Of a stretch of DNA of 64,000 nt, positions 13,678 to 63,300 are shown in pieces. Made by a program: the position numbers and the translations under genes. The DNA lies in the NCBI GenBank assembly GCA_029560465.1, contig JAKQKX010000073.1, forward strand, positions 79,411-143,410. The letters are read 5' to 3'. Origin of the DNA: Candidatus Omnitrophota bacterium. GTDB taxonomy: Bacteria; Omnitrophota; Gorgyraeia; Zapsychrales; JANLHA01. The notes beneath the pieces are model-generated. The model made no database searches, was not told where the DNA came from, and was given only the letters and a program-made list of their open reading frames with translations. Each line of letters begins with the position of its first letter. Position 1 is the stretch's first letter.

Positions 13678-13730
13678 GATCCAGATAACTTAGTGTAACG
13701 AAAATCTGAATTTTAAGGGAGGAATTTTCA

Positions 13731-14566: not shown

Positions 14567-14586
14567 TTAAAAATTTTAATAAGAAT

Positions 14587-14925: not shown

Positions 14926-14950
14926 AAGGCTTTAAAATGAGGGTACGGGC

Positions 14951-15259: not shown

Positions 15260-15279
15260 TGAAACGTAAATTTTAAATT

Positions 15280-16995: not shown

Positions 16996-17014
16996 GGATT
17001 ATAGGTGAATTGTT

Positions 17015-17314
17015 ATGAAAACACGGAAAAGGAATCAAAGGAAAAAGCTTTATAAATGGCCGGGACAGGTGTCTTTGGAGTTTATGTTTGGGATGATCGG
17101 TGTCGTTTTGCTTGTGGTCGGGATGATTCAGGTTTTTGCCTGGACAGGCAATGACCTGATGAAACGTTTTAACTCTCATGAAGCTCTTTTGGTTTCTCCG
17201 GTTGGCACTTCTCAACCTGCGGCTCCTTTAGAACAGGTCCGGCCGATGTTTTATTCGGTCACAAAAATAAACGCAACGGTTAATAGCAATATTTTTGGAG
17301 AGGAAGCTCCTTAA
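17015..17314 (+). CDS. small TadE-like pseudopilin
   Basis: 'WPGQVSLEFMFGMIGVVLLVVGMIQ' pilin-like N-terminus. 99 aa. Its 3' end overlaps the next ORF start by 20 nt. Confidence 0.45.
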   Translation: MKTRKRNQRKKLYKWPGQVSLEFMFGMIGVVLLVVGMIQVFAWTGNDLMKRFNSHEALLVSPVGTSQPAAPLEQVRPMFYSVTKINATVNSNIFGEEAP

Positions 17315-20300: not shown

Positions 20301-21341
20301 ATTGCTTGTGCCAGCCCCACCATTTTGTCAGACGCCTTAAACTGTTCCTGCACGTGGTACGGGTTACCGACGGATCTTTTGGGAACCTGTGGACAGCTTT
20401 GCGGTATTGGGGCGACCCCGTTTTTTGATGCCATTGAAACAGCCCTTGATGATAATATAGGCTCGTGCGGAGAAACTGATCCTGGAGAATGGAAAGATTT
20501 GTTAGACCAGAGCGTTTTAGCCGCGGGGAATCAGGCGATGAAAATGTCAAAACGCTTGAATTTGTTGGAGGGACGAGAGGAAGAGGCGATTTCGATAAGG
20601 AATGTGTTGTATAATGCGCTTCTTCATATCGACGCCTTTCTCACGGGCCCGGCCCAGGGGCTTATTGATGCTTGTAAGGCATGGGGGAATATTTATCCTC
20701 CGGCCACCACCTCTTTCGCCATTTATGCCTGGCAGGATCTCCCCAAAGATGTTTATAACACGATTCGGGGGGATTGGCATGTTGTTAAAGTGGAAGTTCG
20801 AACTCCGGGGCGGTGTAACGCCGCGTGTGGAACGGATCGATGGCCGTATATTGACACATACACCAAAAGCTGGGGGATGAAACGCTGTTATGAATTAAAG
20901 GAATGGACAGGCAGGGTCAAAGCCCGGGTGATCCGTTATGACGAGGATACTGTCGGCAGCCGGATACTTTTCCCGGATGGAACTCTATTATGGAAACCAC
21001 AATACTATCATCCGGAAGGGTCAGATCAGGATCCTACGGATTTGGAGCTGACCTGCGCTATTATGATTGATCCCAATATCGCCGCCCAGACATGGGAATG
21101 GGGGTGGAGGAGCGCTTTTATGGTTAATCAGACGCCGACAGCCAGCGCCACGCCACCTAGGGGGTCGCCCGAGTATTTGGATTGCTGGAATTTTCTGCAT
21201 GAAAGTTTGTTAAGATATGGTTATTCAACGGCGACGTGCGCTCAATATTTTCTAGGAGGCGGATCGGGGTACAGTGGAGACCAGGGGTTTCGTGTCCGTT
21301 TTGTGGAGTGTGATAACGCCTTTATTAGTGGAAATAATTAG
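17295..21341 (+). CDS. TadG-like large Cys-rich membrane-anchored protein (putative pilus-associated adhesin/tip protein)
   Basis: 1348-aa ORF. After an in-frame Met at 17448, 'GQVGLILILAAAIGLILYAVTINIGRISQGKTLTIIAANTAASKMA' resembles the TadG N-terminal domain (TM helix followed by D/N.GR...LQ..ADAAALA). Two further very hydrophobic helices follow. The ~1100-aa extracellular region has many Cys clusters (CCPANPVGNMRFPAMCDPCCV, CCATGTC). The true start may be 17448 rather than 17295. Confidence 0.55.
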   Translation: MERKLLNSKFITPGVKLLHVFYKGVRRVRRWQHKKRNAFFFVPNNSGDSTRMPPRHVAGQVGLILILAAAIGLILYAVTINIGRISQGKTLTIIAANTAASKMASFIASYGQMLFMTSLGGETKICAWTGFLVKLIAAIIVVVIVVICAATEQCEGWGLAAAIVAAVLVVAAAVIDVTITQPGITSMWNKMMKDSMGPKEMAVELGVQTALMTAVNDPAQIPDLFDFDTDGSFGNLADPLNKTTAPDYISRFAYYYTRRLQGIPDLNLTIIDDFLSALTDFLFGGDPNRCTVWGCDTDDWGLIDPLDCLLTPGHPCCPANPVGNMRFPAMCDPCCVINDPDLRPACCATGTCVEDEGFAGGDPNTCDERSPYHTPLPPAAPNASLTYPYIFRGINENSTNNKNSSGAWVPANISFREWLGFDDEHHQYAVNPARPNWHYLIDGTGANLDHSQLIRSAPLEYDFYMEDATGYYLNDERPGIFPFFYKLADWGMDLQALTYGALTPDPPDPHPVRDNLECHLCDVDGIAAGTVPAVCAGMTYPSEIGVALELPETPDTALYSGGWCVDAANTGADGDPPQLLDVVPNIVDLLADDAVCAQDVGGWKRGADQFCDPPDQWPYMAECIKAGGPSGGGGPPCVEVDPVSGTSWPVDCACGTGGALPPTPPVDRTLAANNFQYVTTNWPDDKLDDFIYGLPEFYEWATTLFGKDKDTLEDTFDDWYEEAATWIEAPCPSGNAADCAGSCTGDVDGGYWYVWRDDLGSFYTPIVNWLNPPDADLYVGSGCFTNSSADPAVWCVPPPQAAANKYADPTYLGFQSGYNGLECPGVSQEEQASFDISADGRGDIEDVIACFNWNLFDPAEDPSGAPIIHPVTGAQAVGNFEKFEACKWDCDNNPVNSINSCPILPRSLVPGFDALIFTVPMPEADLIALTLCLGTESIPTCNDDCSSLPGGYGIPAFVPTSDNAALPAPDTSLLTNLRALYAFCEANPASSLPNQCRDQGTTIACASPTILSDALNCSCTWYGLPTDLLGTCGQLCGIGATPFFDAIETALDDNIGSCGETDPGEWKDLLDQSVLAAGNQAMKMSKRLNLLEGREEEAISIRNVLYNALLHIDAFLTGPAQGLIDACKAWGNIYPPATTSFAIYAWQDLPKDVYNTIRGDWHVVKVEVRTPGRCNAACGTDRWPYIDTYTKSWGMKRCYELKEWTGRVKARVIRYDEDTVGSRILFPDGTLLWKPQYYHPEGSDQDPTDLELTCAIMIDPNIAAQTWEWGWRSAFMVNQTPTASATPPRGSPEYLDCWNFLHESLLRYGYSTATCAQYFLGGGSGYSGDQGFRVRFVECDNAFISGNN

Positions 21342-21362
21342 AAAAGTATTTAAGGACGAAAT

Positions 21363-21806
21363 ATGTTTCGGCAAAGGAGAAGTGCTCAATCTATATTGGA
21401 GTATATGACCTTGATTGTTTTTTTATTATCAAGCTTGTTTGTCTTTCAAGGTTATATTTTAAGGGGTTATTATGGAAGCTGGAAAAAGGCGGGGGATGCT
21501 TTTGGCTCAGGGCGTCAGTATGACCCCAGGCCTTTTGGGAATTATGGAGATGGCGGCGGGACTTTAGAATGTTTTTTTGATGCCACCCACTGTACGTCAG
21601 GGACCGGCCCGGCCCGGCCGTGTACGTTAATTAACAGATGGATTTCAAAGGCCTGTTATGATGCGACACCCTGTGATTGCACGATGCCAATCGGAACGAC
21701 GGGGTATATCACACAGTGTTTGCAGTGTTTAGAAAATTGTAGCGAGTCTGTAGCTGCGGGAGCGCTTTGTGGGGACGTGACGACATCGAGGGTTTTAATT
21801 GATTAA
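21363..21806 (+). CDS. Flp-like pilin with Cys-rich C-terminal domain (pilin 8)
   Basis: 'RRSAQSILEYMTLIVFLLSSLFV' Flp-type N-terminus. The 100-aa tail has 12 Cys (CTSGTGPARPCTLINRWISKACYDATPCDCTM...CLQCLENC). Confidence 0.55.
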   Translation: MFRQRRSAQSILEYMTLIVFLLSSLFVFQGYILRGYYGSWKKAGDAFGSGRQYDPRPFGNYGDGGGTLECFFDATHCTSGTGPARPCTLINRWISKACYDATPCDCTMPIGTTGYITQCLQCLENCSESVAAGALCGDVTTSRVLID

Positions 21807-21841
21807 TGATTAGGGGTTTATAAGGAGGCATAGGTTAAGCG

Positions 21842-22696
21842 ATGTATGTTTCTCTATTTTGTATATTTATATCTGCGACAATGTTTGGGTATTTTGTCAT
21901 TCCGTTAATTTATAATAAATCCGTAGAAGTTGGCCAAAAACGGGCGCATAAACTTTCTTCAAAACTGGACAGGGTTTTGCCCCGCTCCAAGGTTGAAAAG
22001 ATAACCCGCTTTTATATCATTGCTCCGATTGTTTTTGGAGGGGCTTGCTATATGTTTTTCCCGGAAGACCTGCGGCTTTTCGGTATAGGAATCGGACTGG
22101 TTTTCGGTTTAATTTTTCCAGGAGTTTATAACAACCTCCTTATAGGGCAAAACAGGAGGAAATTTGATGACCAGTTAATAGATGCGCTTATGATTATGTC
22201 AAGCTCCTTCCGAGGGGGGTTGAGTTTGGTTCAGGCCATGGAAGCCGTTGTGGAAGAGATGCCGGATCCGATAAACCAGGAATTTTCGATTGTTTTGGGG
22301 GAGAACAATATGGGGGTTTCTCTGGATGAAGCCCTTAATCATCTTTATAATAGGCAGCCTTCTCCGGCCGTGCAGCAAATGACAACGGCTATTTTGCTGG
22401 CAAGAGAAACAGGGGGGAATTTGCCCAGTATTTTTCAGCGGATTGTGAATGTTATTCGTGAACAAAAAAGAATAAAATCTCAGATAGACACTTTGACAGT
22501 TCAAGGAAAAATTCAAGGTGTTGTTATGTCGGCCTTGCCTATTATGTTTTTTACGATTATTTACGGAACGAATCCGACTTTCTTTGATCATATGTTTAAG
22601 TCCACGGTAGGGAGGGGCATGCTTGTTTATGCGGTTTTTTCGGAAATTTTAGGCGCCATTATGATTTGGAAGATTAGTAGTTTTAAAGATTTTTAA
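21842..22696 (+). CDS. tadB: TadB-like inner-membrane platform protein (T2SS-F domain)
   Basis: T2SSF-domain pattern 'LIDALMIMSSSFRGGLSLVQAMEAV...EFSIVLGENNMGVSLDEAL...TAILLARETGGNLPSIF'. Flanked by TM helices. Confidence 0.7.
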   Translation: MYVSLFCIFISATMFGYFVIPLIYNKSVEVGQKRAHKLSSKLDRVLPRSKVEKITRFYIIAPIVFGGACYMFFPEDLRLFGIGIGLVFGLIFPGVYNNLLIGQNRRKFDDQLIDALMIMSSSFRGGLSLVQAMEAVVEEMPDPINQEFSIVLGENNMGVSLDEALNHLYNRQPSPAVQQMTTAILLARETGGNLPSIFQRIVNVIREQKRIKSQIDTLTVQGKIQGVVMSALPIMFFTIIYGTNPTFFDHMFKSTVGRGMLVYAVFSEILGAIMIWKISSFKDF

Positions 22697-22734
22697 TAAA
22701 TCAAACAAAGCCTAACCTAAGGAAGAGGTATATC

Positions 22735-23625
22735 ATGTTAATGCTGACATTTGTTTTGACGATGTGTTTTTTGGCGGGATTTAGTTTTGTTGTTGGGCTT
22801 TTTCCGATGGAAATGGAGAGCCGGCCTACGTTAAAAGCTTTTGGATATGAGGTGGCCCCGGCAAAGAAGAAAAAGAATGCGACGTCCATGTTGCGTGCTT
22901 TAGCCATGTTTAATAAACCATTGTGTTCAGGGGGCCTTCGGAAGAGAATTTCAAAAGATTTATCTGTGGGGCATGTTAACTTGACGCCGGAAGAATTTTT
23001 CTTAATGAAGGAAATCGGTATTATTTTGGTGCTTTTGTTGACTTTTCAGATGATTCAGCCAGACATGATTCTTTTTTGGCTTTTTATGAGTCTTTCTATT
23101 GGTTATATGATGCCGGAATTTTGGCTTAAGGGAAAAATTAAAAAAGTCAAAGCTGTTATTGTGAAGGAATTGCCGAATGCCATTGATTTGCTTGGCCTTT
23201 GTGTGAATGCTGGGTTGGACTTTATGTTGGCTTTGAAGTGGGTTGTTGAGAAATCAACACCATCGGTCATGATTAACGAGCTTAATATCCTTTTGCAGGA
23301 AATCAACGTTGGAAAGACCCGCCGTGACGCATTAAAAGATTTGGCGGTAAAATTTGACCTTCCGGAAGTTTCTTCCTTTTCAAGGACGCTTCTCCAGGCA
23401 GATAAAATGGGGACCTCTGTTTCCGAAGCCCTGAATCTTTTGTCTGAAGACATGCGCCTTGCCCGATTCCGCAGAGGGGAACAAATGGCCATGAAAGCGC
23501 CTATGAAGCTGTTGGTGCCCCTGTTGTTCTTTATTTTCCCTGTTGTCGGAATTCTTGTCGCCGGCCCAATATTTCTGCAGTTTATTGAGGAGAATCCGTT
23601 GTCAGAATTGGGTGGGAAAAAATAA
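22735..23625 (+). CDS. tadC: TadC-like inner-membrane platform protein (T2SS-F domain)
   Basis: 'LPNAIDLLGLCVNAGLDFMLALKWVVEK...ELNILLQEINVGKTRRDALKDLAVKFDLPEVSSFSRTLLQADKMGTSVSEAL' T2SSF pattern. RBS AGGAAGAGG. N- and C-terminal TM helices. Confidence 0.7.
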   Translation: MLMLTFVLTMCFLAGFSFVVGLFPMEMESRPTLKAFGYEVAPAKKKKNATSMLRALAMFNKPLCSGGLRKRISKDLSVGHVNLTPEEFFLMKEIGIILVLLLTFQMIQPDMILFWLFMSLSIGYMMPEFWLKGKIKKVKAVIVKELPNAIDLLGLCVNAGLDFMLALKWVVEKSTPSVMINELNILLQEINVGKTRRDALKDLAVKFDLPEVSSFSRTLLQADKMGTSVSEALNLLSEDMRLARFRRGEQMAMKAPMKLLVPLLFFIFPVVGILVAGPIFLQFIEENPLSELGGKK

Positions 23626-24326: not shown

Positions 24327-27300
24327 ATGAATTTTAGATTGGACAAAAAACTAGGTGCCGAAACTGTCTCTAAAGGTATATTAGAGAATAGGTTAATTTC
24401 TGCGTCTGAAAGTATTGTCCAAAATGAATTAAAAGAAGAGTCTTTTAAAAGTAGATTTAAGTCTTGGATTCGGCTTGTTGCCCTTGTTGTTGTTTTAATT
24501 TTCCTTCCAGAGCAGGTTAGCTGGGCTTTCAACTACAATCCCGCTGTTCTTTGGGGACACTCGTCTTCGTCTGTTCAGGTGATTGACTTGGATTCTCCCA
24601 ATCCCCAGGTTTCTCAAGAAGAAATGATGGCGATACAGCTTTCCTCCGGTGTCGCCAATCTTTTGGAACAAATTGAGAACAAAGAAAATGCACAAATTAA
24701 ACTCGGGCTGTCTTCAGATATAAATAATTCTCTTTCTAGTGAGAAAAGCGTTTTAATTTCTGCGAAGAGGAAAATCACTCCGGATTATGTCCAATCTGTT
24801 AAATCTTGGATTCGTAATCCTAATATTCACCCATTTAATTGTGGTGTTTATGCTTTAAAAGATTTGTTAGATGGCAACAAAATTTCAACGTCTTTGGCTG
24901 AAATTGCTGTGGCAACTCTTTCCGTCGATCTTTTAAATAATATTATTGAGCCTGGAGAAAAATTCTTAAAAACTTCTCTTTTTGCGATTGAAGAAGTTGC
25001 CCGCGGATATGGTCTTAATGTTCAGGCCGTCAAGGTTGACACGCAAGACATCCTTTATCTGAAAACTCCGTTTATTGCCAATTTTGGTTCGGAACACTTT
25101 GTGACTGTTCGGTCCGTTGATGCTCAGAATGTGTACTTCTCTGATATTGGCAAGCAACAGTCTATGCCACGAGATCAATTTAAAGAGAAGATCAGCGGTT
25201 TTGTTCTTGCTGTCAATTTGGATCGCCAAGAAGATATGGAATACGAACCCATTTCAGACGCCATGAAGGTGTTTGTTTGGGGTAATAAATGGATAGACAG
25301 ATCAGATGATTTGCCCGGGTTGTTGTCTGGGGCGGATGTTTTTGCTGCTGTAATTTCCATGGTGGTTCAGATTGTCATCGCTTATATTATGGGTGGCCCG
25401 CTTGGAGTTATTATTTCTTTAGCTTCTTCAACTTTTGGTTCTGCCGTAGGGGAAGCGTATTATGTTAACTGTGTGAATGATGGCGGAGATGATTGTGAAA
25501 GCAATGCGTTTATTTTAAGCACAGCTATTACAATTGCTGTTTCAGTAGGTTTGAATTATATGGCCGGGATAGGATCTGAGGCCGGAAATGCAGCGGGCGA
25601 GGCTGCCGCCAGTGGTGGGGAAACCGCATTGGAGTCTACTGCCAGTACCGGCGCAACCAGCTCCCTTAGCACAGCTTTACAAAATGCGGCAGTTGGTGCG
25701 GCAGTTGGTGCGGCTCTCGGGTGGGCCGTTGCGAAGATGACGGGAAAAGATGCTACCAAGGCGGCGCTTATTGGTGGGTTAATTGGAGCTGCAGGAGGAT
25801 TAATTGCTGGTTATGGTGGGTTTGGTGAGGGGATTCAAAGCGCTTGGCAGAGTTTGATAACAAAACTTCAGAATATATGGTCTAGTATTAAAGGGTTTTT
25901 TAATAAGGTTTTTGGCGGCGGCGCTGCATCTACGGCAACGAGCACTACTTCCACAACGAGCATGACAGTGACTCAGCGGTTGTGGGATATTGCGAAGGCC
26001 TTTGCCAAAGGCTTTACGGTCGGGATGATTAAGGCTTATGTTCAAGTTAAAATTGCCGAATTTTTAGAAGAGCATTTGGATATTGATAGTGAAATTTTGA
26101 AATCGGTTTTAGTTGGGTTGATTTCTTCTTTGGCTGCGGATTTGGCGGTGGGTGTTGTTGCCATGGGATTGGACGCGGCCGCAGATGCGTTGTTTGACAA
26201 GCCTGCCAGTGGTGATACCGAGGATTTGGGCTGGCGTGAAATGTTGGGCATGAAAGATGACTCGGAAGCGTCAAAGAAACAATATGCCAATCAGCAGGTT
26301 GAAAAAGCGCAAATTAAGGCAAAGGCTGAAGGGAAGGGGCCGCTTACTGGTGATCAAATTGCGCAAGTTAAAGCGGACGCAATGAGTAGCTATAGTTCTT
26401 TTAAGTTAAATCTAGCAGACATGGGAATGATGGCCCTTCAGCGGTTAGCAGGGGGGATGGGGAGTTTTATATTAAGATATATATTTAAAGATAAATTCGA
26501 CCCAAGCTCCATGATGTCTCAAATTCTTGGCAATTTTGGGTCTTTAATCGGGATGACGCTGTTTAATGTGATCGCTTACGGAGACACTTGGGGAACAACA
26601 TATGATATTAAGAAAGAAAAAGACGAAAATGGAAATGATGTATATACTTATGAAAATGTTGGAACGAAAGAGAACATAAAATCTACTACAACTACAACCG
26701 AAGAGGGGAAAACGGTAACGAGTCATTATTCCGGAACGCATAATGTCACCATGCTTGATACGGATGGTAATCTAGATAACGGTTATGAAAAAGCGTTTGT
26801 TCAGGGATCTTTTTTGGGAACGATTTGGCGGGGTGCGGTTCAAACATTGGTATCGATGTTGTTGGCCCTTGCCCTTTTTGGTAAAGAAGATTTTTCAGAA
26901 GCTGAAGGGGCGGATGGGAAGACGCGAGACAAGGATGAGCGAGCCAAGCAATTTTGGACGTGTAGTTTAATTTTCTTAGGGTCTGTTCTTACGCAGGGTA
27001 TATTCGCATCAATAGCCGGAATGTTTAAAACGTCTGATTTGGCTGCTATAGGAACAAAAGATTATGAAAACCAACAAAAAGCAGGCGGAAAAACAGACGG
27101 GGAAGACAAGCAAAGCATAGGTTCTATTTTCTTGAATGTAACAGGAAATGCTTTTCAAGAGTTTGCTTCTAATTTAGTGGGCGATTGGGTTGGAACAGCC
27201 CCCACTGGCGGAAAGTTTGCTAACTTGTCTTCCTTTGGCACCTATGTTGAATCTATGCAAAAAATGGGCGGCATTACTTTAGATACTGTGTTGAAGGCCC

Positions 27301-30300
27301 AGGAAAAAAGAGAAGAGCTTGAAGAGAAAAGAGAAGAAGCAAAAGAGCAAATGGGTGGATATAATGCTCCGGAGGAGTGGTATGCCTGGGGTTGGGATGA
27401 CAGTATGGCAATTCCAGATGACCTGAAAGACGATGCAGAGAAAACAGATGAAGACATGGCCCAGGAAGCGGGGTTGCAGTTTTTGATTATGGCGGAAGAT
27501 AACCGGGTCGGTTTCTGGGTAGACAATTTTTCCCAGGTGGCGGCGATGTCTGCCATTACTAATTTTAAAAATAGTTTTGAATATGTAGCGTCCGCAATTT
27601 CACACGATTCCGGATACATAAAATTTTACCGGGATTTTCTTGGTTTTACCTTCCGTCCCATTGCCAAAGACGGGTCTTTTCTTGGGAAGAATTACATTCA
27701 ACTAAAAAGAAAAACAATCGGAGAGGATTTTGATCCCGAAAAAGAGGCGACAGAGTTGGTTGCCAAAATAGAAGAAGCAAAGGAAAAAGGCGACATAGAA
27801 GCGGACGGTACCCTGCTTACTATCGAGATGGAAGCCGACGTGGACTCGGCAGAAGATGTGGATGCTTTGGTTAGTTTTATGACGCTGGTAGAGGAAAAGC
27901 TGTCTGGAACAGCGGAAGAATCAAAGGGTGAAAAGGGTGATGTGCTTATTAAGGCGAAAGTGTTTTCCTCTAAAACTCAGGAAGAGGGGGGCACCGAAAG
28001 TCTTATTGCTGGTTACGGATCAGGGGATATAAAGCTAGTAGCCGGTTACGGAGCGGGAAGTCAACAGACAAGTGATTTTATGGTTGTGCCAAGACAACAT
28101 ATTCTTATTGGGGCAAATAGTGCGGACTCCGCAAACTATATTTCTTACAATTTAGTCGGAGCGGGAAATAAGGGAAGAGGCTGGGTTCAGACGGATACAG
28201 CCACAGGGGATGTTTATGAGGGGTTCCTTTCGTATAATCCATATACAGGACAATATTCTTATGATGGCCGGGCGTTCACGGTTGAAGAAGCGAATAAATT
28301 AGGCTTGGATCCTTCTATAATGAAGATTATCGCTAAGAAAGAAGAAGGAGATAAATCAGGAGGGGCGGAAGTAGATCTTTTTGGTGAAGGTTTTACGAAG
28401 TCGAAAGAATTGTCTATTATGGAAACAAGCCCCTCGGAATCGGAAAACTTTGGTGGAGAAGCGCAAACCGGTTACAATCGCTTGGTCGCGCTTGGTTTTG
28501 AGGATTTGGGGTTTGCCATTTATGATAAAGATGCGGGAACAGACGGGCAGGTTGATGGTGGGGGGAGTGTTTATCGTAGAGTTTTACAAGGCGGAGTTGA
28601 AGGGTGGCGGGCTAGGGCAGACGCAAGGGCGGAATATGCTGACCAGATGCGTGAGGCCAAAATTAAGCGTATTATTAACTGGCTGGTTCCGTTTGTGGAT
28701 ATTTGGGGAGAAGGCGAAATTCCGAATCCGGAAAAGGTTGTTTCTCCCGACAAGATGATTGAGGAAACGGTGAGTGCTATGCCGCTGACACAAAAGCAGC
28801 GGCAAGGTCAGGCAGAGGCAAAATTTAAAGCTGCCCAGTCGACGCCGATTCGTGTTAAGAATGCTATGTTAGAGAAGATAAAAGAGTTGGATGCGCAAAA
28901 AGACGCTGATCAGATAACGGAAGAAGCTTATACGACAGAGGTCGCTAAGTTGAACGCTTCCATTGCTAAGATAGATGAGCTTTTAAATGTTGACCCGGAG
29001 CAGGGTGTTTATGACACCTTGGCCACTGTTCCTGTTTATGCTGGTTCTTCTAAGCACAGATATATGCAGCTTTTTGAAGCCGGCGTATTTCTGGGAAATG
29101 CAGAAACAAATAAGTTAATAGGAGAATCGACAACTTCGTATGCAAAATATGAAAACGGAATAATCCAAGGTGGCGTTGTTGGTTGGGTTTTGGGAGATGG
29201 AATTGTTAAAAATCAGGGTGAAGTTACTTCTTTAGTAGGGAAAGCAGAAAATGTCCGCGCTGTTATGAAACAACTGGGTTTGGATAACTTTATTAATATG
29301 TCTGAAGAAGAGAAAAAGCAGGTTACGGATAAATTAATTGCGGCGTTGACGGAACAAGGTCAGGACGGGCTTTTGGCGAGCGTGAAGATTGGCTTTGAAG
29401 GCGGGGCCTTGGTTGCTGATAGTCAATTTGAAGGCGAAGGTGAGACCGACCCGGGAACCAAGCTTAGAAAGAGGATGTCAGCTGCGGATGTTGAACTTTT
29501 GAAGGCGCTTATTGCCACTGCCGCCTTAACGAGCGGATTGTCGGAAGAAGAGAGAATCAAGGCGGTAGAAGAGCTTTCTGTTGCCTTAAATGACGTGCAA
29601 AATATGGGTGATGTGGAAGCCCGGCTTATGGATATGACGACCCAGGATAATCCGATTAAAGATTTTCTGATTAACGCCTTGGAAAACACCTATGCTGGAA
29701 GTCCTACCAAGAATGTTACGATTAATGCTATGAATAAGTCTATGACAGAAGATGGGTGGGATCAGTATACCGCCAAAATGGAGGCGGGAACTAAACTAAA
29801 AGCCAGGGCAGAGGCGATTATTTCCGTTATTGAAGAGGTGGGTTTGGGGGATGTGCTTGGTCTTTCCGAAGAAGAAAAGAAAACCAAGGGCGCGGAACTT
29901 ATTGCCGCTTTACAGCAGGCGGGATTATTAGATAAAGATCAAAAAGTTCCAGACCTGTTTGATGCAGCCACATTGCAATCCATGAAGCTTGCGCTTGGAA
30001 CAATGTTGTCTGGCGGGGTTGCCGATGCAATTGTGGCAGATATGTTAAATCATCAGATATTGAATACCCTTATTAATGTGTTTACCAGCGGCCTTTCTGA
30101 AGAAGATAAAAAGAAGGCCGCTGTTTCTTTGCAGGGTGTGGAAACGATATCTGCTCTTAAAGATGCGGTCGTGAATTTTGCCACGAAAGAACCCCTGGCA
30201 GATGTCATCCGCGCTAGTGAAATTGATGATCTTGTCTTCAGTTACCATGGGGCGCTTGATGATGCCGGGAACGTAAGGTCAGATTTTGCTTTTAATTTGG

Positions 30301-33300
30301 ATGCCTATAATCCTGCCGCAACCCTAAAATCCCAGGCAAATGTATTCCTCCCCGGAATTGGTTTAGCACAAATATTAATCAGTGCTTTTGGCGGCGAATT
30401 GAGCGAAGAGGAAACGTCTTCACTAGTGCAGAATATGGCGAAAGTTTTTATAAATGGCCTTTCAGAGGTGGATAAAAAGAAGGCAGCTAGTGCTTTTAAA
30501 GATGTGCAAACGTTTGATGAACTTAAAAATGCGATTATGGGGTTGTCTTCGGGTGTAAGAAAAATTACCTTAGATGAAAATCTTTCTCCGGTTGACCCTG
30601 GATCTGGGCTTATGGTTCGCTCGATTTCCCAGGGAGGGCAGCTCTCTTTGATGAATTTATTACAGGGGGATGTTTTCTCCTCCAAGCTGAAGGGCCGGGC
30701 AGACACCCTTATGTCTATTATTGAAAGTGTCGGGTTGAATGATCTGGCGAACCTCTCTTCAGAGGATAAAAAAGCCAAGAGAGATCAGTTGGTCACCGCC
30801 CTGAAAAATGCCGGGCTTTTTGAAGGAGAAGGAAATGTTTCTTTGTTTGACCCAGCGGTTTTAAATGCCTTGGTTGCCTTGGGTTTTATGTCGCCCGAAG
30901 CCGTTGATACCATAGCATCCGGTATTATGGATACTGAAATGACGAATTTGCTGGTGAATGCGGTGGTGTCTTCCGGATTAACCGAAAGAGACTCAGAAAA
31001 GGCCGTTGCTGCTGTTAAAGGGGTGAAGACCATTGAGGAACTAAAAGCCGCCACAGAAGGTTTTTCTGGTTTTGAGGGCACGTCTTCTTTTATTGCGAAG
31101 GCTATTTATGGGGTTGATTCCCGCACCACGGAAGAATTGCCAAACGGACAAACCCGTGAAATTGCTAATATATCAGGCGGGGTCTTTTCCACCATCGCCG
31201 CTAAGTCTGAGGATGCGCGGTTGTCTAATGTTGTGAGCCTGATCACCTCTAACAAAATTTCAAACGAAGAATTGGAAGCCGCTTATAAAGCAGATTTACC
31301 TGTTATTAAAGGCGATAATTTAAATGACGAGCAAATAAAAATAAATGAAAGGAACGCTTTGGTCAATTCCCTTGTGGATCAAATGGAAGCCATGGGGATT
31401 TCTTTAATTGATTTTGTCAAAGCGGTTCAAACAGAAGGAACTTTATCCCAGCAGCTCTCCACAATGACTGTTGATACCAAAAAGCAGGCTTTGGCCGTTG
31501 CTTTGGATACAATTAAGGCGGAAAAAATAACGGCGGATGAACTGAAATCAGCGTATGAAGGCAAAGCTTCTTCTAAAGATAATAACGGTGTAGAACAAAA
31601 AGAAAGCAGCAGAACGAAATTAATAAAAGCCATTGTTTCTGATTTAAGAGACGTGGGAGCGACTTTTGCCGATGTGGCGGGGCTTTTGCAGGTTGCCGAA
31701 GGCCAAGATTTAAATCAATCTATTGATGCGAAAGCCCAGGAGCTTTTTACAAGGGATTCCTCGGTCTTCAAGGCCGCAGGGTTGATGACCAGTGGTAGAT
31801 CTTTCATTAATCAAGAAGGGCAATTGCAGTTTTCAGATGCATCTGTTTTAGGAGATTATATCCGCTTGCGGCAGGCTGGTGGGCAGGGTGGAACGGAACA
31901 GCCAGAGGGTTCGGTTGTCCGAAGCAAGGTTCTTGTGGGAGGGGTTGCTGATCTTTATACCGCGGATATTGGCGGTGCGCAGTTCCTGAAAGACACATCC
32001 TCCGGCGTATTTGAGATGAGTCCTTTTGTTATCCGTATGGATGAATTTGTTGCCCGTAATCCTAAAGTTGCGGTTTATGGTGATGAATGGGGCGCTCATC
32101 TTGCCAATGATAAAATAGAAGTGAAAAACATGGTTCTTAAGATTTCGGAAAAAGACGGAATCAAAGCCATTGATCATTATCTCACAGGACAAGAAGGCCA
32201 AATGCGTTATACGGGGGACACGCATTTAGCGGATATTATTAAGATTTCAAAGAAGGACTTGGTTAATGATGAAAAGTTGCAGCAGGCGGTAAAATATTTG
32301 GGTTTAACCATACCGGAAGAAGGCGATTTTTCTCTAGAACAAAAAGTGCAAATTCAGGGATATCTTGATGGGTACAGGGTGTCTATTTCCAGCAAGTCGG
32401 GTGATTTGGGATCTGAAGAGTGGGCTTCTAAAGTTCCTGCTGATGAAATATTGCAGAAATTCCTTGGCGGGAGCGGCATGCTTACGGATATGCCGGTTGT
32501 GACCCAGTCTGTGATTAAATACGGGGGAAATGGTGTAGAAACCATAATTGAGCAGAAAGAAATTAAGTTTGAATATAGCGATGACTCGGCTTCCAAAAAA
32601 AGCCGGCTGTCTATTGATGAAGACGGGTCGTTGCGGGTTGTTTTGGCGTCTCCGTATTCCATGCTGAAAACTGAAATGAAAGTTGATGGGGAAACAGGTG
32701 TGCCTTATATAGAGAAGATGAATGAGAAAGACCCTGTTTACCTTTTGGCCAGAATACCCGGGTTGGGGAATGAAGTCCTTGCTCCGAATAATCCTGGTGA
32801 GCAAAATGATAAAAAGACCGTAAGCTCCTATGATGTTATGCTCACTAATATTATAAAAGTCGGCGCCGCGGAATATGCTGGGCAAATGATGGATGTGTAT
32901 GCTGGCAACATCAATGGCGATATTGAAACCGAAACATACACGGCCAAAGGGAAAGATGGGGCTGTAAAGGAGACATACGCGGCTCCTCTTCCGGCAGATA
33001 AGAATGACCGTTATCGGAGAATCAGTTTTCTGGCGATGCCGTTCCTATACGGGAATTTTGGCACTAAAGATAACCCGGTAGGCATGAATCAATCCCTCCA
33101 TAGTTTTTATATTGAAAACAATGTTTCTGATATGGTGGCCGGAGCAACAGCGGCATATTCTACGCAAGATCCAACCGAAAAAGGGCCTGGAACGGTTTCG
33201 ATGAATTCCAGGCAAAGAATTTTGTCCAGGGCCGGGCTTTTGCCGATTAATCGTATTTTATCATCAAACGGCACTATCGTTTCGCGTTTTCTGGGGAATG

Positions 33301-54300: not shown

Positions 54301-57300
54301 GTTTGTTGGTTTCTTATTCTCGTGAAGTTAATGATAAGCCCGAGCGGGCGATTGAGGCTAGGGCGGAAATCACCCGGGCAAAGACGTATATTAAAGAGAA
54401 CTATATCGCCTCCGCCGATGATTTGGTTAAATACAGCGATGCTTTGGACATATCGCCTAAGGGCCAGGCTTTGGTTGCGGCTTATACCAGGCTTCGTGAT
54501 GATGAAATTCACATTACTTTGCCGCGCATGGCTGATGTCGCTAAGATTTCCAACACCGAAGCGCAGGAAATATTCGACGCAGAAATCCGGCCGGTAATAA
54601 AGATTGCTGAGCAGAAGCTCCCCGCCGATCAGGAAATCATGGCGATTATGGATAGTGCGGAAGCGGATGACTTGGAAGAAAAGGCTTTTGCGAGCCTTGA
54701 GAGCGATATCCGGGACGCGGTTAATAAAGGCGAGTTTGCGACGTATGATGATGTGGTGGCTGTCACGCAGGGCATGACACAGTCGACGAAGCACCGGGTG
54801 TTGGGTAAGCTGCAGAGCTGGCAGTTGTCCGGCAGAGATTTTAAGAATATCCAAGAGGCGGCCACGCAAGCCGAGGCCGTGGCGCCGCGGCCAGTCCAAG
54901 TGATGGGGCATGTGGTCAGAGTTCATAATCAAGTTAAATCGTCAAAGTTGCAGAATTTACAGTCTAACGACGATTTGGTGCCCAGGATCCAGGAATTTTA
55001 TGCCGGGATTGAAGGCTTCCACTTAAAAGGTAATTTAAAAGGGCTTGAAAGAGCGCACATAGGCAATCAGCGGGCTATTTTCAGGCAACTTAATAATGGC
55101 GGAGTTGTCCTCCTCGGCGTAGAAAACAGGGGTGACATTGATTATGGTGCTTATGAAAAATTCACTCCGGCTAACATGTCAGACGAGGAGTTGCTGGCGA
55201 AGTCTTATGAGTTAACAGAAAAAGTTTCGTCTCCGATTGAATCTCAGGATAGAATTGCCGTGGTTGTCTCCCGGGATTCTAAAGATATTGATTATGAAGA
55301 TCTCCGTACCTTGACCGGCGCAGTAAATAATGCGTCCCCAGATCAGCGCTCTGTGGTTTTGGCTAAGATTTCCGATGTGATGAAGTCGAATCCCAAGATA
55401 GAGAGCGAAATTCGATCGCAGGGTGAAGTCGTTCTTGATGTTCAGCCGCCGGCCGGGTATAGCGAACTCGTGACTCTCACGCCGGAACAGGTGCAGAATC
55501 TTTCTCCGAAGATGGCAAACTTGAGTCCTTACCGTACCGAAAGAGCTATCTTGGCGGTTGTGGCGCAGGATCCGGTTGTGTTAAAAGGTGACGGGACTGC
55601 TTATGATGGAAACAACCGCATTATTTGGGCGCAAAAAATGAATGCGCCGTTGAAGGCATACGTTCCTAAGGGGCAGAAGGAAATGCTTTTGGCGTCGTTA
55701 TCTCAGTCCAGCAGAGATAAGGGAACAGCCAGCAGCAGTCCGGTTGCGTGGCAATTAACGCAGAGTCCGGCTCGTCAAATGCCGTTAACTTCCCAGGAAA
55801 GAGCGCATTCTTTAGAAACAAAAGAGATCGTTAAACGAGGCGGTATGTTGCAGGTGTCCTCTTCTGTTGTGGCACGGCCATCGCCCATGGCTATGGCGCA
55901 GGCTCAGCCGGGCGGTATGATGCAGGTTTCTTCCGCGGTTGTCGAAAGGCCGTCACCGGTGGCTATGGCGCAGGCTCAACCAGGTGGATTGATGACCGTC
56001 TCTTCAACGGTTGTTAAAGAACAACAACAGTTTCCGGCGATATCCGTGCCGACCATAGAATCGCCAAAACCGTTTGAAGTGACAGCGCCTGCGATTATTG
56101 CGACACCGGAAGCCCCGGCCGTTACTTTGCCGATCACAACAATGCCGGTTTTCATGCCCTCTCCTTTAAGTGAAGCGCCGCGGGTTGAGGCTCGGCCGGC
56201 TGAAATAGCCTCGGCTTCGCGCAAAGAGGGCCGTTCTTCTCGTCAGAATAGTGAGTCATCAAGCGCAAAACCGGAAAAACGCGGTGGCATGATGCAGGTG
56301 TCCTCTTCTGTTGTGGCACGGCCATCGCCCATGGCTATGGCGCAGGCTCAACCGGGCGGCATGATGCAGGTTTCTTCCGCGGTTGTTGAAAGGCCGTCAC
56401 CGGTGGCTATGGCGCAGGCTCAGCCGGGCGGCATGATGCAGGTTTCTTCCGCGGTCGTTGAAAGGCCGTCTACGCAGATGGAAATAACTCAGCCGGGCGG
56501 CATGATGACAGTATCCTCTTCGATTATTGAGAAACCTCAAATTGCCAGTCTTGAGGCCGAAACATCTAGACCGTTTGAAATGACGGCCGTCGCTCCGGCC
56601 CTTTCAGCGCCGGTATTTCCAGTTCTATCTTCTCCGTTAAGTCAGAGCCTTATGCAACAAACAGAACAACCTTCCGTCCAATCTGCTCAGGCGGCTGATT
56701 TTATGGACAGGTCGGCTATTCAGCAGCAAGAACGCTTATCCGTTCCGTCCCAAACAACGATGTCTGGTGTTCGCCCGACGCCATCACCCGTGCGTAATCT
56801 TAATCTGACCAGGCCTGAAATGAACTTTGCGGCTATTCCTAAACCGGAAAAACGAGGCGGGATGCTTACGGTGTCTTCTACTGTTATTGACCGCCGGTCA
56901 TTGCCGGTTTCCGCCCAAGCCAAGGTTTCCAATCCTGAAGAAGATGCGGGCTTGTCTGCGGCAGAGATGGTTACTGAATTGCCGGTTAGTGCGCCCTTGT
57001 CTGCACCGATGCCGGTTCTTTCTGCTCCTATCGTTCTTCCCGCGTTCACAGGTGGCCCGTTTGCTTCTGAACAGCGGACTTTGACTACGGAGATTTCAAA
57101 AGATTTAGCGCAAGCAAATACTTATTATGATGCTCGCAGCCAGATCCAGCAGGAACAAGAAGGCGAGATACAAGATTTGTCATTCTGGGACATCACATCT
57201 GGTGCTATGAGCCAGGCTGTTTCCTTGGATGAGAAAGTCCGATTGGCTCATGATGCGAATAAATCCGTTGTGTTGTTTGAGCAAGGAAGAACCCTTCCTG

Positions 57301-60300
57301 AATTGTTGTCTGCCGCTAATAAGACAGTTGCCGAGACATCCCGGCCAGTCTATGTTTATGTTCCGACAATGGAATCCATGGAAGTGGAGCGTGTCGCCAC
57401 TCAGATGGGGATAAATTTACCGAAAGAGACTTTGGGGCAGATTTCACAACTTATGGCTGAAAAACCGCTTGTTTTGGGCGGCTTGGATACTTTAATCAGC
57501 GCTGTGCCGGAATTGGAAAAATACGATATCGTGCTGGTCAGGAATTTCATGATGGCTCTTCAGCAGGCCAGAAAAGCCCCGTTTGTGTCTTACCAGAAGA
57601 GCCTTGATGGAGAAATAATTTCTCAACGATTAGCGTTTGAGCAGTTGCCTAAGAATTATCCGATAGTTTTGTTAGGAAACGACGAGACCCTTAAACCGTC
57701 TTCCGAAGAGTTGCGTAAATATATCGTTGCCCGTAAACCATATTTGGATAATGAGCTGGTTCAGCATATTTTGCCGACAACAGAGCGGCTTCAGTTGGCT
57801 AAAGGGGAAATTTTGGAAATTGCACCGGTGTCGTCATCCATTTCGACAACTGCGGCAGAGAAAGAAGGGGCGGCGATTATTTATGCGGCCAGCCTTTCGG
57901 TTTCTGAGAAGATGGGTGTGATCGATTTTATCGGAAGATATCCCGAATTTAAAGATGGGACAACGAAGGTTGAGATAATTCGCGGGAAGGATCTTGAGTC
58001 AAAAATTTATATGGCTGATGACACGGGGAAGACCCGGACGGTTCTTATTCCCGAAGATGTGTTCTATAGTGTGATTTCTAACCCGGTTTTGGGAGAAAAG
58101 AATCAGCGGATTGGCATAGAGAAGAGCGACAGGGTTGATCTGGCCATGAAGACCGGGAAATATGCCCATTCGTTGCCATCGGAATATCATACAGTTGATT
58201 TAGGTCAGGTTTTGAAAAAGCATGACTTGACCTCCGGGTTGCAGATTACCGATGAAAATCCGCTTTTGGTTGCTTATGATCGCCGCGATTTTGACGTAGC
58301 TCAGGATCAGATGGAGAATATTTTGGTCTCTTTGGCGAAGACGGTTGATGTTTCCGATTTATCGCAGATCACCCGTCTCCAGGTTGTTCCTTCTGACATG
58401 AATCTGCCGGCGAAAATTATGTTGACGGACATGAACAAGCAAGGACAGCCCAAGACATTGATTTTGGCACAGTCTTTGATACAGAATCCCCAGGAGATTC
58501 AAAACGCTTCTTTGATGGTTGATAGTCGGAGTTCTATCGTGAGATTGGCAGAAAAGCAACGGGCAGAGACGATTGCCCGGAATCAGATTGATCCGGACGC
58601 AATTACGGTCGTACGCCTGCCGGGCGGGGACAGGGCTTATATCGAGAAGAATTTTGTTAGATTTGTCGACGACCGTGGCCGGGTCCGTAAACAGCAGATG
58701 GAGTTTAAGGGCGTTAATATTATTGAAGTGGGGCGCATTATTGCCGGGTTGAGCGATCAGCAGCGCAGGAGCTTGTACTTGATCGAGGCGGACAAAACAG
58801 CGGATATTTATGTGGATAAGGCTTCTGGAGAAAAGTGGCTTCCGGTTTCAGTTCATCTTGGTAGCACGAGATATTTGGCTTGGGCCAGATTTGATGAAGA
58901 GATGGAGTTGGCTGTGCCGGTTAACGGAAATCAATTGATTTACGCTGAGAAGATGGTCATGTCCGCGGTCAATGAAAGTGGCCGTCCACAGTTTAAGCCG
59001 GTCGGGTTTGATAAGCGCATTGATTTCGATACGTTAATGCCCGGCGCCGACTATTCGGTGGGTGACTATGTGGAATCGTTAACAAGGCAATTAGCGATGG
59101 AAGAAAACATTTCTATCGATTTTGTCAAAATTGATGATTTCAATTATTTTGTTAAGCCCACAGGCGTTCGGATTATTAAGAATGATAAAGGCCAGACGTA
59201 TTTGATTCTTGGAACCGAGTATGTTAAGGCCCAGAACGACCGGATCGCAGAGGCCCAGAAATATGATTTGGCCATCACAGATCCGTTAGGGATGTATCGA
59301 GCATTTATCGAAGAATCTCAGGCGAAAGAGCTTGAGGTCAAAGATGCGTTCGGTGTTTTTGTTGTGGCTGTGACGAACAAAGTCGGTCAGATTTTAACCA
59401 GAGATTCGAGATCTGGTGGGCAGGATCAAATCGCGTTGAAAGATATTCCGATCCTTTATACCACATTAACCGGGGAGCAAATTATTGTGGCTTCTACCAA
59501 GAAGTCTGATATTGAGCAATATCAGTTTGATATTGCTATTGATCGCGGCATCACGACACGTAAGGAACAGTTGGCCGAACCGAAGGTGTTCGAAGCAGTT
59601 CCGAGTTCAGCTCCTGTGACCACACTGCCGTTGTTGCCGGGCACAGATACTTCAATTATGCCTCCGATCGGCCTGTTGTCTCAGGCTGTTCCGGTTCAGG
59701 CAAGTACGACAGAAACAGTAGAAACAGCACAGATTGAGAAATTGGCTTTAGCCAGTATCCCGATTAGCGATGAAGAGCTTAATGGGCAATTATCAAAGGT
59801 GGGCAGTACGGTTGAGATGCTGGATATAGAAACAAATGAGGTTGGAAGAATCGTTTCTAACGTTCAGTTCAAGAATCCGTTCAGCGGTCAAGAAGTCCGG
59901 TTGGCCAGCGTAGAGATGAAGAATGGGGATGTCCAATCGTTTACTTTTGATGAGTTTAAGAAAAAGAATATTCGTATTGTTCGTCCTTCTGCCGAGCAAC
60001 CTTTGTCAGAAAAGACTAAAATCGCTTCGGCTCAAAAACAGCTTTCAAAACCGACTGCGGTTGAAATTCGACCGGCAGCTTCACCAGTACGTAATTTGCC
60101 GTCGACTGCTACGGAACGAACATGGGTAGATGCTCAGGCGACGAGAAAAGACCGGATGAAAGAACGCCAGTCTGGCGGGTTGTTAATGATGTCGGCTATG
60201 GTTATTATGAATCCGGCTGACGCGGCTGTCCAGGAAGGACAGTTTGAAGAGGCTAAAGATTCGTCATCGCCGATTATGGTGGCGTTAACCAATCCGATGG

Positions 60301-63300
60301 TGTTGCCGGAAGATGCTAGGGCTGGCGGTGTTCGAAAAGACAGCGTAAAGTATGTTGAGGTAGCCCGAGTGTCCTCTTCTCTGAAGCAGGCGGCTCCCGC
60401 GAAGATCACGGAAGTTCCTATGTTGGCAAAACAAATGCCGAATATAGCCACGATAAGTAGTTTGTCTCTTAATAATCGTGCAGCGTATGATATTTTAAGA
60501 ACCGCCATGACGCAGACCATGAATTCTCGGCAGGATAGAGCGGACTTATCTAGGGAAATGAACACTATTTTGGCAAGGGCGGCTCAGGAAGGGCAGCGAG
60601 TCATTAGCCCCGAAGGCTATCCGTTAACTGAAAAAGCCTTACAACAGTTATCAAAGCTCAAAACTAAAGAAGATCTTGCCGCTTTGGTTGGGAAAGACGG
60701 AGCTGAAAGCCTGTGGGATCAATTAAAAGACGCCTTGAAGATGCTTTTCGGCGGAGAAATCAAAGCGGATGAAAAAGAAGAGAGTGTTCACCTGGCTAAA
60801 GTCGACCAGGAGGCCATGCAGGGTGAAGGGGTGTTGACATCACCACAATATATAGAAGAAGGAACGGTGTCGACAGAAACAGGCGTTCTTAAGTCTGACG
60901 TGACTGTATTGAAGGAAGCTTCGAGGGCTCCTCCGGAGGAAATGAAAGCCGATGTAACGATTGCTGAAACAACGGTTAAGAAAGAGGATCAAGAAGCAGC
61001 TCCGACGCTTGCAACAGCGCCTCCGTTAGCGCCGCCGATTGTTAGTCCGGAAACATTGGTACCTCAATTACCAGCACAAACAGCCCCGTCTTCACCGATA
61101 TTTGTGCCTGTATTGCCTATTGCCGCATTTACTCTGGGTAAGGCGACGACCTTGCCGTCTAACCAAAAGAATCCGATAGAAGGACGTAAAGAAACCGGAA
61201 CAAAGGGCATTCCTGTTACGAGTATGCCATTTAGTTCCTCAGTTCCTGTTGAGGAAGAGCCTGTGCCTGGAGGCGGATCAACAGGGCCTGTGAGTGGCTC
61301 TACGAAAGCCAAGACTGCTTTAGTTATTGCGTATGTCAGGGATATGGCAGCGAATAAGGGAGCTGTTGCCAGCGCTCCGGTTGTTAAACCCGAAGCGAAG
61401 CGACAGCATGTAGATTTAAGTACTGACAAAGAATCTAAAAAGAATTTTAGAAGTTCTGGTTCTAGTCCTACGCCGTGGGGCGCTGCCGAGACTTCCTCAA
61501 GTCTCCAGGCAGGAAAATCCGAAGAGAGGACAAGACTTGAACGTGTTGTAATGGTTGTAACGGTTGGTGTGCGTACGGCTGAAACGATAGCAGGTAATGA
61601 AGAGTTAAAAACTAATTGGGTGAGAAACGCCAATCGCGGTAACGATAACGCGAACGGTGTAAGCAGCGCAATCGTTGAATCGGCTCGTGTGACCATCGCT
61701 GCATCGAAAGCGGTCACATCAGAGTTAAAAACTGGTTGGGTGAGAAACGTCAGCCGTAGTGACGATAATACGGTTGGTGGTGGCAAAGAAATCGTCAATA
61801 TTGTAACTAGCAGTACGGTTCTCTCGGCGAAGACAGAAGCCGAGGATGAGTTAGAGACTCGATGGGTGAGCGCCGATCGCGAAGGCGTTAGCGCGATAGG
61901 TGTAGAAGGTGCATACGCCAAAGCCGGTTCTTTGAGAACGTCTGGTATTAATGGCTTAGCTGCCATCAATTGGTTTGGCCTCTTCGGAGGTTTTGCCAAG
62001 GCAATTAAGGCTGTTTTGACTGGATGGTTACAGAGAATTGCTAGATCTGGGTCTGGTAACGGGTCTAGAGAGGGTACATTACCGGAAGCTGTGCCTGCAG
62101 CCAGCTATAGCCTTGAGGGTTCTATCGTCAAGGTGGCTGAAGGAATATTCGTGGCTGCCAAGTCTACGCTGACGAAAGTTGGTGAGTGGCTGAAGCAGTA
62201 TGCGAACCGTGTTGTAACGATTCTTAGAACGTACGACAGCAAATGGACTAATCGCTCTGTACTTATCATTGGCGTTGTCGAGGATACGACTACAAGTGAA
62301 GGTGTGCATGCATCTGCGCTTGGAAGCGAATCTGGTAGCATGGCTGGTGATAGGTCTGGTACACATTCAAATGATGTGTTTGGTGTGTCCAGTGTAATCA
62401 GTAATGGATATGACTATCTGTATAGTCGTATTGATTCCATTGCTGGTGTTGAAACAGTTGTATCTCGTTCTGTTAAAGGTAGTGCTGACAGATTAGCGGT
62501 ATTGCTTAGTGCCAATGCTGGTAGTGTGGCTGACGTAACAAGCGATTCTGGTGTTCTGTCCAACAATGCTCTCAGGGGTTCGGCTGTAAGTGTTGCTGAT
62601 GTCTCTGAGAAAGAGTCCTTTGGTGCGCTTGATCAAGAGATTGGTCAAGGATATGTAGCTGTTGATGTAAGCTATATCAAAGGTTTGCGGTTTGATGGAT
62701 GTGTAGCTTCTGTGCTCAGTAATGGGTATGGATTAAGCACATTGGCATCAACTTCGATTCTTGGCGCTTTGGTCAGTGATGATCTGAGTTCTAAGAATGT
62801 GACCTTTGTGTTAGGTTATGTGAATAATCTGACTGCTACATCTAAGGTTGCGTATGTAGGTGCTATAAAGGGTATTGCTGGTAAGGCTGCCATATCGTTA
62901 GTTGCGCTGAAGCAGTTACATGAGGTTGAGGCGTTAAGCGGTTCTGTGGATCTGTATAGTAGAGTTCTTGGAGTGTCTGCCTCTATAAGGGTAAGTACTT
63001 CCAAGGATAAAGCCTTTACGCAAAAGCTTGATCGAAGTAACGTTCAGGCCATTGTTGCTGAAGCAGTATTAACTGAAGGTGTGTTGGCTGGAGAAGGTGT
63101 CCTGGCTGAAGGAACTGAAGGTGTTCTGATGCCGGTTGAAGCTATATCCAGTCCGGTTCTTAGTATACAGCCTGAAAAGGTCGAAGGTGCTAAGAATGCT
63201 GCCTTTGGTGTGAGGCTTGGTCAAGAAATTGATCAGGTAATACCTGCTGAAGATGCGTTCAATGTATCTGCTGAGGTTGTGCTTAGCAGCGTTAATGAAT

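Follow-up and report, generated by a model that had tools for sequence, protein, structure and literature searches.

An old intragenic repeat array with signs of concerted evolution in a giant Omnitrophota gene

A stretch of 64,000 nucleotides (nt) from a Candidatus Omnitrophota bacterium (GenBank assembly GCA_029560465.1, contig JAKQKX010000073.1, positions 79,411 to 143,410 of the forward strand; hereafter the window, with position 1 as its first letter) carries an array of short in-frame repeats within one giant open reading frame (ORF). Our overall reading, held with moderate confidence, is that this array is old and conserved, evolves in concert and forms a Pro/Met/Ser/Gln-rich, probably disordered linker between modules of the protein, with its repeated cores as putative docking sites. 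A 130-nt tract that is nearly identical between two clusters of the array is best read as the result of recent gene conversion between clusters that already existed, as judged by comparison with the nearest genomic relatives. One of these was a metagenome-assembled genome (MAG) submitted under the name 'uncultured Planctomycetales' (L007) and the other the complete chromosome of a Candidatus Omnitrophota bacterium (L008); they shared 81% and about 56-57% amino acid (aa) identity, respectively, with the window over the aligned region.

Repeat clusters and the near-identical tract

The core motif of the array, GG[ML][ML][QT]VSS[SAT][VI][VI] (11 residues), was detected in eight copies within 55839-56888, arranged in clusters of three, four and one, and a degenerate ninth copy (GGLLMMSAMVIM) was located at 60174-60209; the initial annotation had counted the unit about seven times. 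All of these features are on the + strand. Cluster A (55839-56015) consisted of A1 GGMLQVSSSVV (55839), A2 GGMMQVSSAVV (55911) and A3 GGLMTVSSTVV (55983). Cluster B (56283-56528) comprised the four units B1 (56283), B2 (56355), B3 (56427) and B4 (56496), and the single unit D1, GGMLTVSSTVI, at 56856-56888 had the same sequence in L007. The A1-to-D1 span was about 1.05 kb. The repeat units were 23-24 aa long with 12-aa linkers between the cores, and the full 24-aa unit with a ...RPSP[MV]AMAQAQP linker was present in four copies (A1, A2, B1 and B2). Every cluster began after a basic K/R-R-GG and was followed by a Pro/Ala-rich hydrophobic spacer, and this recurring arrangement adds a repeat of higher order. 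In the window, L007 and L008 alike, the clusters end in a unit with T in place of Q.

At the DNA level, 55849-55978 matched 56293-56422 at an offset of 444 nt, with three mismatches (55907, 55916 and 55943) in 130 nt, which corresponds to 97.7% identity. The near-identical duplication proposed initially thus exists, but its second copy had been placed 14 nt off, at an offset of 458 instead of 444 nt; taken as 55841-55980 and 56299-56438, the two segments are out of register and differ at 99 of 140 positions. The longest exact run between the two copies was 58 nt, starting at 55849. Comparing 55851-55979 with the second copy codon by codon revealed four synonymous and no non-synonymous differences, all of them in third positions. 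Tandem Repeats Finder (TRF) identified a 72-nt period at 55839-55978 (1.9 copies, score 189) and again at 56286-56470 (2.6 copies, score 272), so that the copies are arranged head to tail. The pair at 55849 and 56293 was the only direct repeat of at least 60 nt in a scan of all 64 kb, and therefore it is far beyond chance expectation.

The array was found at the orthologous place in both L007 and L008, with 3+4+3+1 = 11 copies and, in addition, the degenerate downstream copy. The spacing from cluster A to cluster B was 444 nt in the window and 441 nt in both relatives, and unit A3 was GGLMTVSSTVVK in all three genomes, with its position kept. Synonymous divergence (dS) was 0.13 between the A and B tracts within the window; in the flanks it was 0.25 (upstream) and 1.26 (downstream) compared with L007 and above 2.7, which is saturated, compared with L008. 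Since both clusters are present in L007 and L008, the latter at saturated dS, the duplication that formed the clusters must be old. This comparison shows that the cluster architecture already existed before the lineages of the window and L008 separated.

The paralogous clusters of the window were more similar to each other than to their orthologs. Over the first 150 nt of each cluster, window A and window B shared 93% nt identity, while window A and L007 A shared 83% and window B and L007 B only 77%. The respective values for A versus B were 71% within L007 and 85% within L008. A different pair of units was homogenised in L007, namely B3 and C2 (96% over 107 nt). In the window, the tract ended inside the clusters on both sides, and the adjoining sequences were diverged (ETKEIVKRGG versus SAKPEKRGG upstream; A3 versus B3 downstream) and matched their positional orthologs. 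The homogenisation of different unit pairs in each lineage, together with the age of the clusters, therefore indicates gene conversion or concerted evolution and not a fresh duplication.

The initial annotation had attributed the second copy, 444 nt downstream, to a very recent intragenic duplication. The 97.7% identity over 130 nt, with synonymous differences only, would be in agreement with such an event. A copy of recent origin should however be missing from the orthologs, while both clusters were found there at similar spacing, even in L008, and the tract started and stopped within clusters whose flanking units were diverged in accordance with their positions. We therefore consider a very recent duplication very unlikely and retain gene conversion as the explanation for the tract.

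The Pro/Ala-rich hydrophobic spacer after cluster A (PFEVTAPAIIATPEAPAVTLPITTMPVFMPSPLSE, 56070-56174) has an SSPL-like end and was partly conserved in L007 and L008, and the spacer after cluster B (RPFEMTAVAPALSAPVFPVLSSPLSQ, 56568-56645) was orthologous to the one following cluster C in these genomes. D1 is preceded by a conserved element (VRPTPSPVRNLNLTRPEMNFAAIPKPEKR, 56769-56855) with invariant alignment columns, and a paralogous RPxxSPVRNL element is present at 60066-60098, ahead of the degenerate copy, which was itself kept in both orthologs. A highly conserved Pro/Ala-rich segment (ELPVSAPLSAPMPVLSAPIVLPAFTGGPF, 56976-57062) closes the array.

Conservation, copy number and assembly

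Among the 30 core copies from the three genomes, G0, G1, V5 and S6 were invariant and S7 was identical in 29, and each of these positions was encoded by two to four synonymous codons. The linkers varied by genome (RPSPMAMAQAQP, NRPSTQMETTQP and QPSPMTMTETQA). The invariant core, the varied synonymous codons and the diverged linkers together indicate that the core is held by selection on the protein and not by recent common descent alone. This pattern shows purifying selection on the core at the protein level. The flanks of the array also appeared to be under purifying selection, with dN/dS (the ratio of non-synonymous to synonymous divergence) of about 0.06-0.12 compared with L007.

Beyond the two orthologs, the array was rarely encountered. 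The region 55212-57611 had no homolog in an index of 5.8 billion proteins, and a full HMMER scan of 1.84 billion cluster representatives returned two fragments from the window species and, in addition, a distant giant protein in which the array is lacking. Scanning metagenomes with the ortholog alignment or with a degenerate DNA pattern for GGMMQVSS returned either no match or 12 chance matches out of frame, and the array was not found in viral contigs. As far as the searched collections show, the array appears to be confined to a narrow clade. The window species itself was present in several public metagenome assemblies (ERZ795059, JGI 3300010355 and JGI 3300009780 among them), on short contigs each time.

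Compared with both orthologs, about 140 aa were absent from the window, from inside cluster B to inside cluster C. The gap was in frame and ran from repeat unit to repeat unit, leaving eight motif copies in the window against 11 in both orthologs, in agreement with the length variation expected at the outset. Window units B3 and B4 aligned to C2 and C3 of the orthologs, and the spacer that follows them aligned to spacer C. Exchange between units would alter the copy number in frame in this manner.

Two independent short-read contigs of the same species broke off or differed at the array. The first (P0002) showed two differences from the window in 1,885 aa and ended at window position 55895, within the 58-nt exact repeat; its A1 reads MM, while that of the window reads ML. 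The second (L009, an ENA contig; 713 nt, 4x coverage) matched the window without a difference from 56352 to about 56950, with the order B3-B4-spacer-D1 preserved, but B2 was present twice at its start, in exact copies, in the place of the window's B1-B2. It thus has one exact 72-nt unit more. At its 3' end (about 676-713), L009 repeats in reverse complement its own sequence from a few dozen nt before; this is a hairpin artefact and calls for caution with the low-coverage contigs in the comparison. The assembly hazard that had been suspected is therefore real.

It follows that part of the array could be an assembly artefact, in that the 3+4+1 arrangement would be a collapsed form of a true 3+4+3+1 or larger array and the high identity of A and B could stem in part from repeat reads mixed in the consensus. 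Both ends of the stretch missing relative to the orthologs lie within repeat units, L009 has two exact B2 units in place of B1-B2, and P0002 stops in the exact repeat with a different A1, all of which would fit a collapse. Against this, the window sequence crosses the array without a break and keeps the frame of the 39.7-kb ORF, and L009 agreed with it base for base over some 600 nt of the array, although with the low coverage and the artefact mentioned above. When the L007 sequence was used to look for the 'missing' spacer B/C1 of the window species, only P0001 was recovered, via repeat units; this result is uninformative, as even spacer A, which certainly exists, had no database fragment. 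We regard a partial collapse as unlikely. The array is in any case a proven break point for short-read assemblies, and its copy number and sequence are not to be trusted without spanning reads.

Two further observations concern the comparison with L007. The nt identity between the window and L007 formed a mosaic of 79-96% (mostly 85-96%) at 44.9-55.8 kb, 75-84% at 55.8-61.4 kb and 91-97% beyond 61.4 kb, and the left edge of the 5.6-kb divergent block (55.8-61.4 kb) coincided with the repeat array. This suggests recombinational replacement of the block. In L007, the giant frame switches at 17140-17335 (frame 1 ends at 17335 and frame 0 opens at 17140), while the window frame is uninterrupted; this switch may reflect a frameshift or misassembly of the MAG, or else a genuine boundary between genes.

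Candidate functions of the array and the SSP[IV] motif

The composition of 55812-57100 deviated from that of the whole ORF, with Pro enriched 3.4x, Met 2.6x, Ser 1.7x and Gln 1.6x and with no W, Y, C or H. The linker is probably disordered, in accordance with this composition and with the lack of aromatic residues. Strongly hydrophobic segments were found in the ORF only at aa 49-900 and at about aa 4710. The part from aa 4730 to the window end had none and contains domains using S-adenosylmethionine and guanosine triphosphate, which argues that the array is probably cytoplasmic. As no hydrophobic segment intervenes between them, the array and the methyltransferase and GGDEF domains probably share one side of the membrane.

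As a candidate function, the cores may be multivalent, short strand-forming docking sites, which would bind a partner or each other by strand addition while the Pro-rich linkers hold them apart. In a single-sequence AlphaFold model, the cores formed short strands and the spacers coil of low confidence; the mean predicted local distance difference test (pLDDT) score was 44, so that the model provides weak evidence in this direction. Docking on its own is a tentative proposal, which we regard as possible rather than probable. The FG repeats of nucleoporins, which are arrays of short linear motifs in disordered regions, offer an analogy. Like these, the array has a short, conserved, hydrophobic or strand-prone core, regular spacing and variable low-complexity spacers; there is, however, no sequence relationship between the two.

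Several points weigh against our overall reading. Pfam gave no match over threshold on the array, the only signal being DUF6372 at 19.3 bits against a cut-off of 27.4, and the PDB gave no match at E <= 10. The AlphaFold model of the array is of low confidence, and the membrane scan was made with a crude hydropathy threshold. The gap of about 140 aa may have arisen by exchange between repeat units that deleted the segment in frame, or it may reflect a collapsed assembly. In addition, the array is known from three genomes or populations only, which is a small conservation sample, and homogenised copies within one genome are not independent.

The Met content also raises the question of whether the array is a Met-rich metal-binding segment of the Cu(I)/Ag(I) type, or a purely compositional spacer in which the cores are not specifically recognised. 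Beside the 2.6x enrichment of Met, the recurring MM and MxM spacings (GGMM, PMAMA and PMTMT) would be in agreement with metal binding. However, the conserved positions of the core were G, G, V, S and S, and several copies had Leu or Val where others have Met. Only one Met was left in the L007 linkers, neither His nor Cys was present, and the location is probably cytoplasmic. A mere spacer would also not hold five of 11 positions invariant at saturated dS. Both forms of this alternative therefore appear highly improbable.

The main rival explanation is that the motif copies are processing sites, at which the C39 peptidase in the N-terminal part of the same protein would cut after the invariant Gly-Gly. 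Such cutting would sever the polyprotein at the array and free Met-rich peptides of about 23 aa (MMQVSSxVV...QPGG) from each cluster. Substrates of C39 peptidases are recognised by a leader that precedes GG and forms an amphipathic helix, with the consensus LSxxELxxIxGG and hydrophobic positions -4, -7 and -12. The Gly-Gly at P2-P1 was present in all 30 copies, but the amphipathic leader was lacking: the conserved residues are downstream of GG, and the upstream sequence is variable and Pro-containing, with Gln at -4 in internal units, while units that open a cluster have Lys, Pro or Ile there. Moreover, the hydropathy scan does not fix the membrane side of the C39 domain relative to the array. 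In favour of cleavage, the C39 domain scored above the Pfam threshold and displayed a plausible Cys/His/Asp triad by eye, and West-Roberts et al. (2023, bioRxiv 10.1101/2023.11.21.568195) proposed that C39 and S8 domains cleave giant proteins, whose cleavage points they stated to be unknown. On balance, cleavage at the array is a quite improbable candidate, and docking is preferred to it.

The double-glycine leaders processed by the C39 domains in peptidase-containing ATP-binding cassette transporters (PCAT) and AMS transporters provide the closest known comparison for this alternative. The array resembles them in its invariant Gly-Gly and in the presence of a C39 domain, here in the same polypeptide. 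It differs in that it has no consensus of an upstream leader helix, is conserved on the prime side, and is internal and repeated instead of N-terminal and single.

A second short motif, SSP[IV], was frequent in the same part of the giant protein. The ORF contained 17 copies, compared with 0.45 expected from 1,000 shuffles (maximum 3), and all were located between aa 5008 and 12946. Their first bases on the + strand are 39333, 45744, 45786, 46356, 46614, 48003, 49806, 50568, 51261, 51843, 54135, 54168, 55227, 55734, 60264, 61089 and 63147. The sites were found only beyond the last membrane segment, in linkers between recognisable modules. When one SSPL site was included, 11 of the 18 SSP[IVL] sites of the window aligned exactly to SSP[IVL] in L008 while their flanks differed, and several of the remaining sites aligned to SSSI, SQPI or SSGI. 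A distant giant fragment of 7,546 aa contained 26 SSP[IV] sites. The possibility of a DNA-level motif was rejected, as the codons vary (TCT, TCG, TCC, AGT, AGC and others); the motif is thus mainly one of the protein, with the second Ser encoded by TCT in 13 of 17 sites. No mention of SSP[IV] was found in the literature searched.

SSP[IV] may be a recognition, cleavage or modification motif at module boundaries. With SSPL or PSPL at the end of the repeat spacers and SS[SAT]V within the core, one may speculate that SSP[IV] and the core are related. A bolder proposal is that the GG-MMQVSSxV cores and the SSP[IV] sites jointly mark the places at which a giant polyprotein is recognised and then cut or modified, with C39 cleaving after GG. 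This combined proposal is likewise quite improbable.

The host gene and related systems

The giant ORF occupies an uninterrupted + frame that is open from 24312, has its first ATG at 24327 and runs past the window end (63998), and it is therefore incomplete at a length of at least 13,229 aa. Pfam domains identified in it included Peptidase_C39 near the N-terminus, methyltransferases (Methyltransf_11, Methyltransf_25 and Methyltransf_31), a weak EcKL/APH-like kinase signal and two GGDEF domains. The catalytic region of the C39 (double-glycine) peptidase is located at 24834-25151 (PF03412, 37.1 bits against a cut-off of 22), close to a signal-like hydrophobic segment at aa 49-67. The candidate triad, assigned by eye, consists of Cys177 (24840-24842, FNCGVYAL), His262 (25095-25097, EHFVTV) and Asp278 (25143-25145, FSDIG). 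A PDB search with the C39 region gave a weak match to the double-glycine protease 6mpz, and the remaining matches were mostly spurious ones to designed armadillo proteins. A ParB/Srx-like identity was considered for the module just upstream of the array (DGTAYDGNNRIIWAQKMN) and discarded, because neither Pfam nor a four-sequence profile against the PDB supported it.

Two other repetitive regions were observed in the giant protein. One, in its N-terminal part (about 29200-31100, +), consists of units of about 100 aa with GLSEEE(K/R)KK...(L/V)xAL motifs; this repeat family is diverged in DNA and was missed by TRF. The other (about 61550-61950, +) comprises three units of the ELK/ETxWVRN...GVSSAIV type in a Val/Ala/Ser/Gly-rich C-terminal stretch, and these may belong to the repetitive beta-helix-like region described for giant proteins.

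A complete Tad/Flp pilus operon is located directly upstream of the giant gene (4644-23625, +). It encodes RcpC/CpaB, a secretin, a fusion of a ParA-like protein with T2SSE, Flp-like pilins and two T2SSF proteins (TadB and TadC). The secretin (5536-7479, +) is fused to a TonB C-terminal domain, the fusion protein (7659-9821, +) joins a ParA-like TadZ to the TadA ATPase, and the pilins are encoded at 13303-13677 and 14174-14566 (+). Two large Cys-rich proteins of 571 and 1,348 aa (15280-16995 and 17295-21341, +), which had no Pfam match, are encoded between the pilin-like genes and tadB and may be pilus-associated. The Tad operon is broken up by a stretch of low GC content at 10000-14000 (37-39% compared with about 45-50% elsewhere), which contains an ORF of 567 aa (10730-12433) without a Pfam match; this stretch may be an inserted element.

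These features fit an Omnitrophota-type giant gene. Giant 'Archaeovorin'-type proteins of Omnitrophota were described by West-Roberts et al. (2023, bioRxiv 10.1101/2023.11.21.568195) and by Nielsen and Lui (2026, bioRxiv 10.64898/2026.06.07.730766), and the latter, whose data comprise 176 complete Omnitrophota genomes, found fuzzy tandem repeats in 86% of long genes. The window gene is similar to them in its very long single ORF, the C39 domain near the N-terminus beside a signal-like hydrophobic segment, the multiple membrane segments, the methyltransferase and GGDEF domains, and the proximity to a Tad pilus cassette resembling the type II secretion system (T2SS). Unlike the published proteins, it had no detectable SecA_DEAD domain, which is common among them. 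Pfam gave no SecA_DEAD match for the whole ORF at E <= 0.01 or for aa 5200-6200 at E <= 1, although a very divergent form could escape and the ORF is incomplete, and it detected no glycosyl hydrolase or NUDIX domain in the available 13,229 aa. A length above 30,000 aa is characteristic of the Archaeovorin type; the ORF extends over at least 13,229 aa up to the window end. The two studies mention no GGMMQVSS array and no SSP[IV] motif.

Concerted evolution of intragenic tandem repeats is known from polyubiquitin genes and from surface proteins of Gram-positive bacteria with their repeat regions. The array shares with them in-frame units, a greater similarity within the genome than between orthologs, a copy number that changes as by unequal exchange, and silent differences. 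It differs in having short units (23-24 aa) which are not a folded domain, and in being probably cytoplasmic instead of surface-exposed. Furthermore, homogenisation affects only internal units of the array, and each cluster-terminal unit retains across species the sequence typical of its position. The likeness of RGG-MMQV to the polyubiquitin junction RGG-MQIF was not taken as a sign of family membership, as the units are far too short for a ubiquitin fold. The array is thus a further example of intragenic repeats evolving in concert, with a core motif that is unusually well conserved and previously undescribed.

The giant proteins of Omnitrophota are almost uncharacterised, and they may act as a single chain or as cut pieces. 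The array is a rare piece of such a protein in which residue-level constraint is clear outside the known domains, and a double-glycine peptidase belongs to the same chain. The array and the SSP[IV] motif supply specific peptides for proteomics and for protease or binding assays, among them AMAQAQPGGMMQVSSAVV and AMAQAQPGGMMQVSSAVVERP as candidate substrates of the C39 domain. If the cores and the SSP[IV] sites were indeed marks for cutting or modification, they would provide the first concrete cleavage map for giant proteins of the Omnitrophota.

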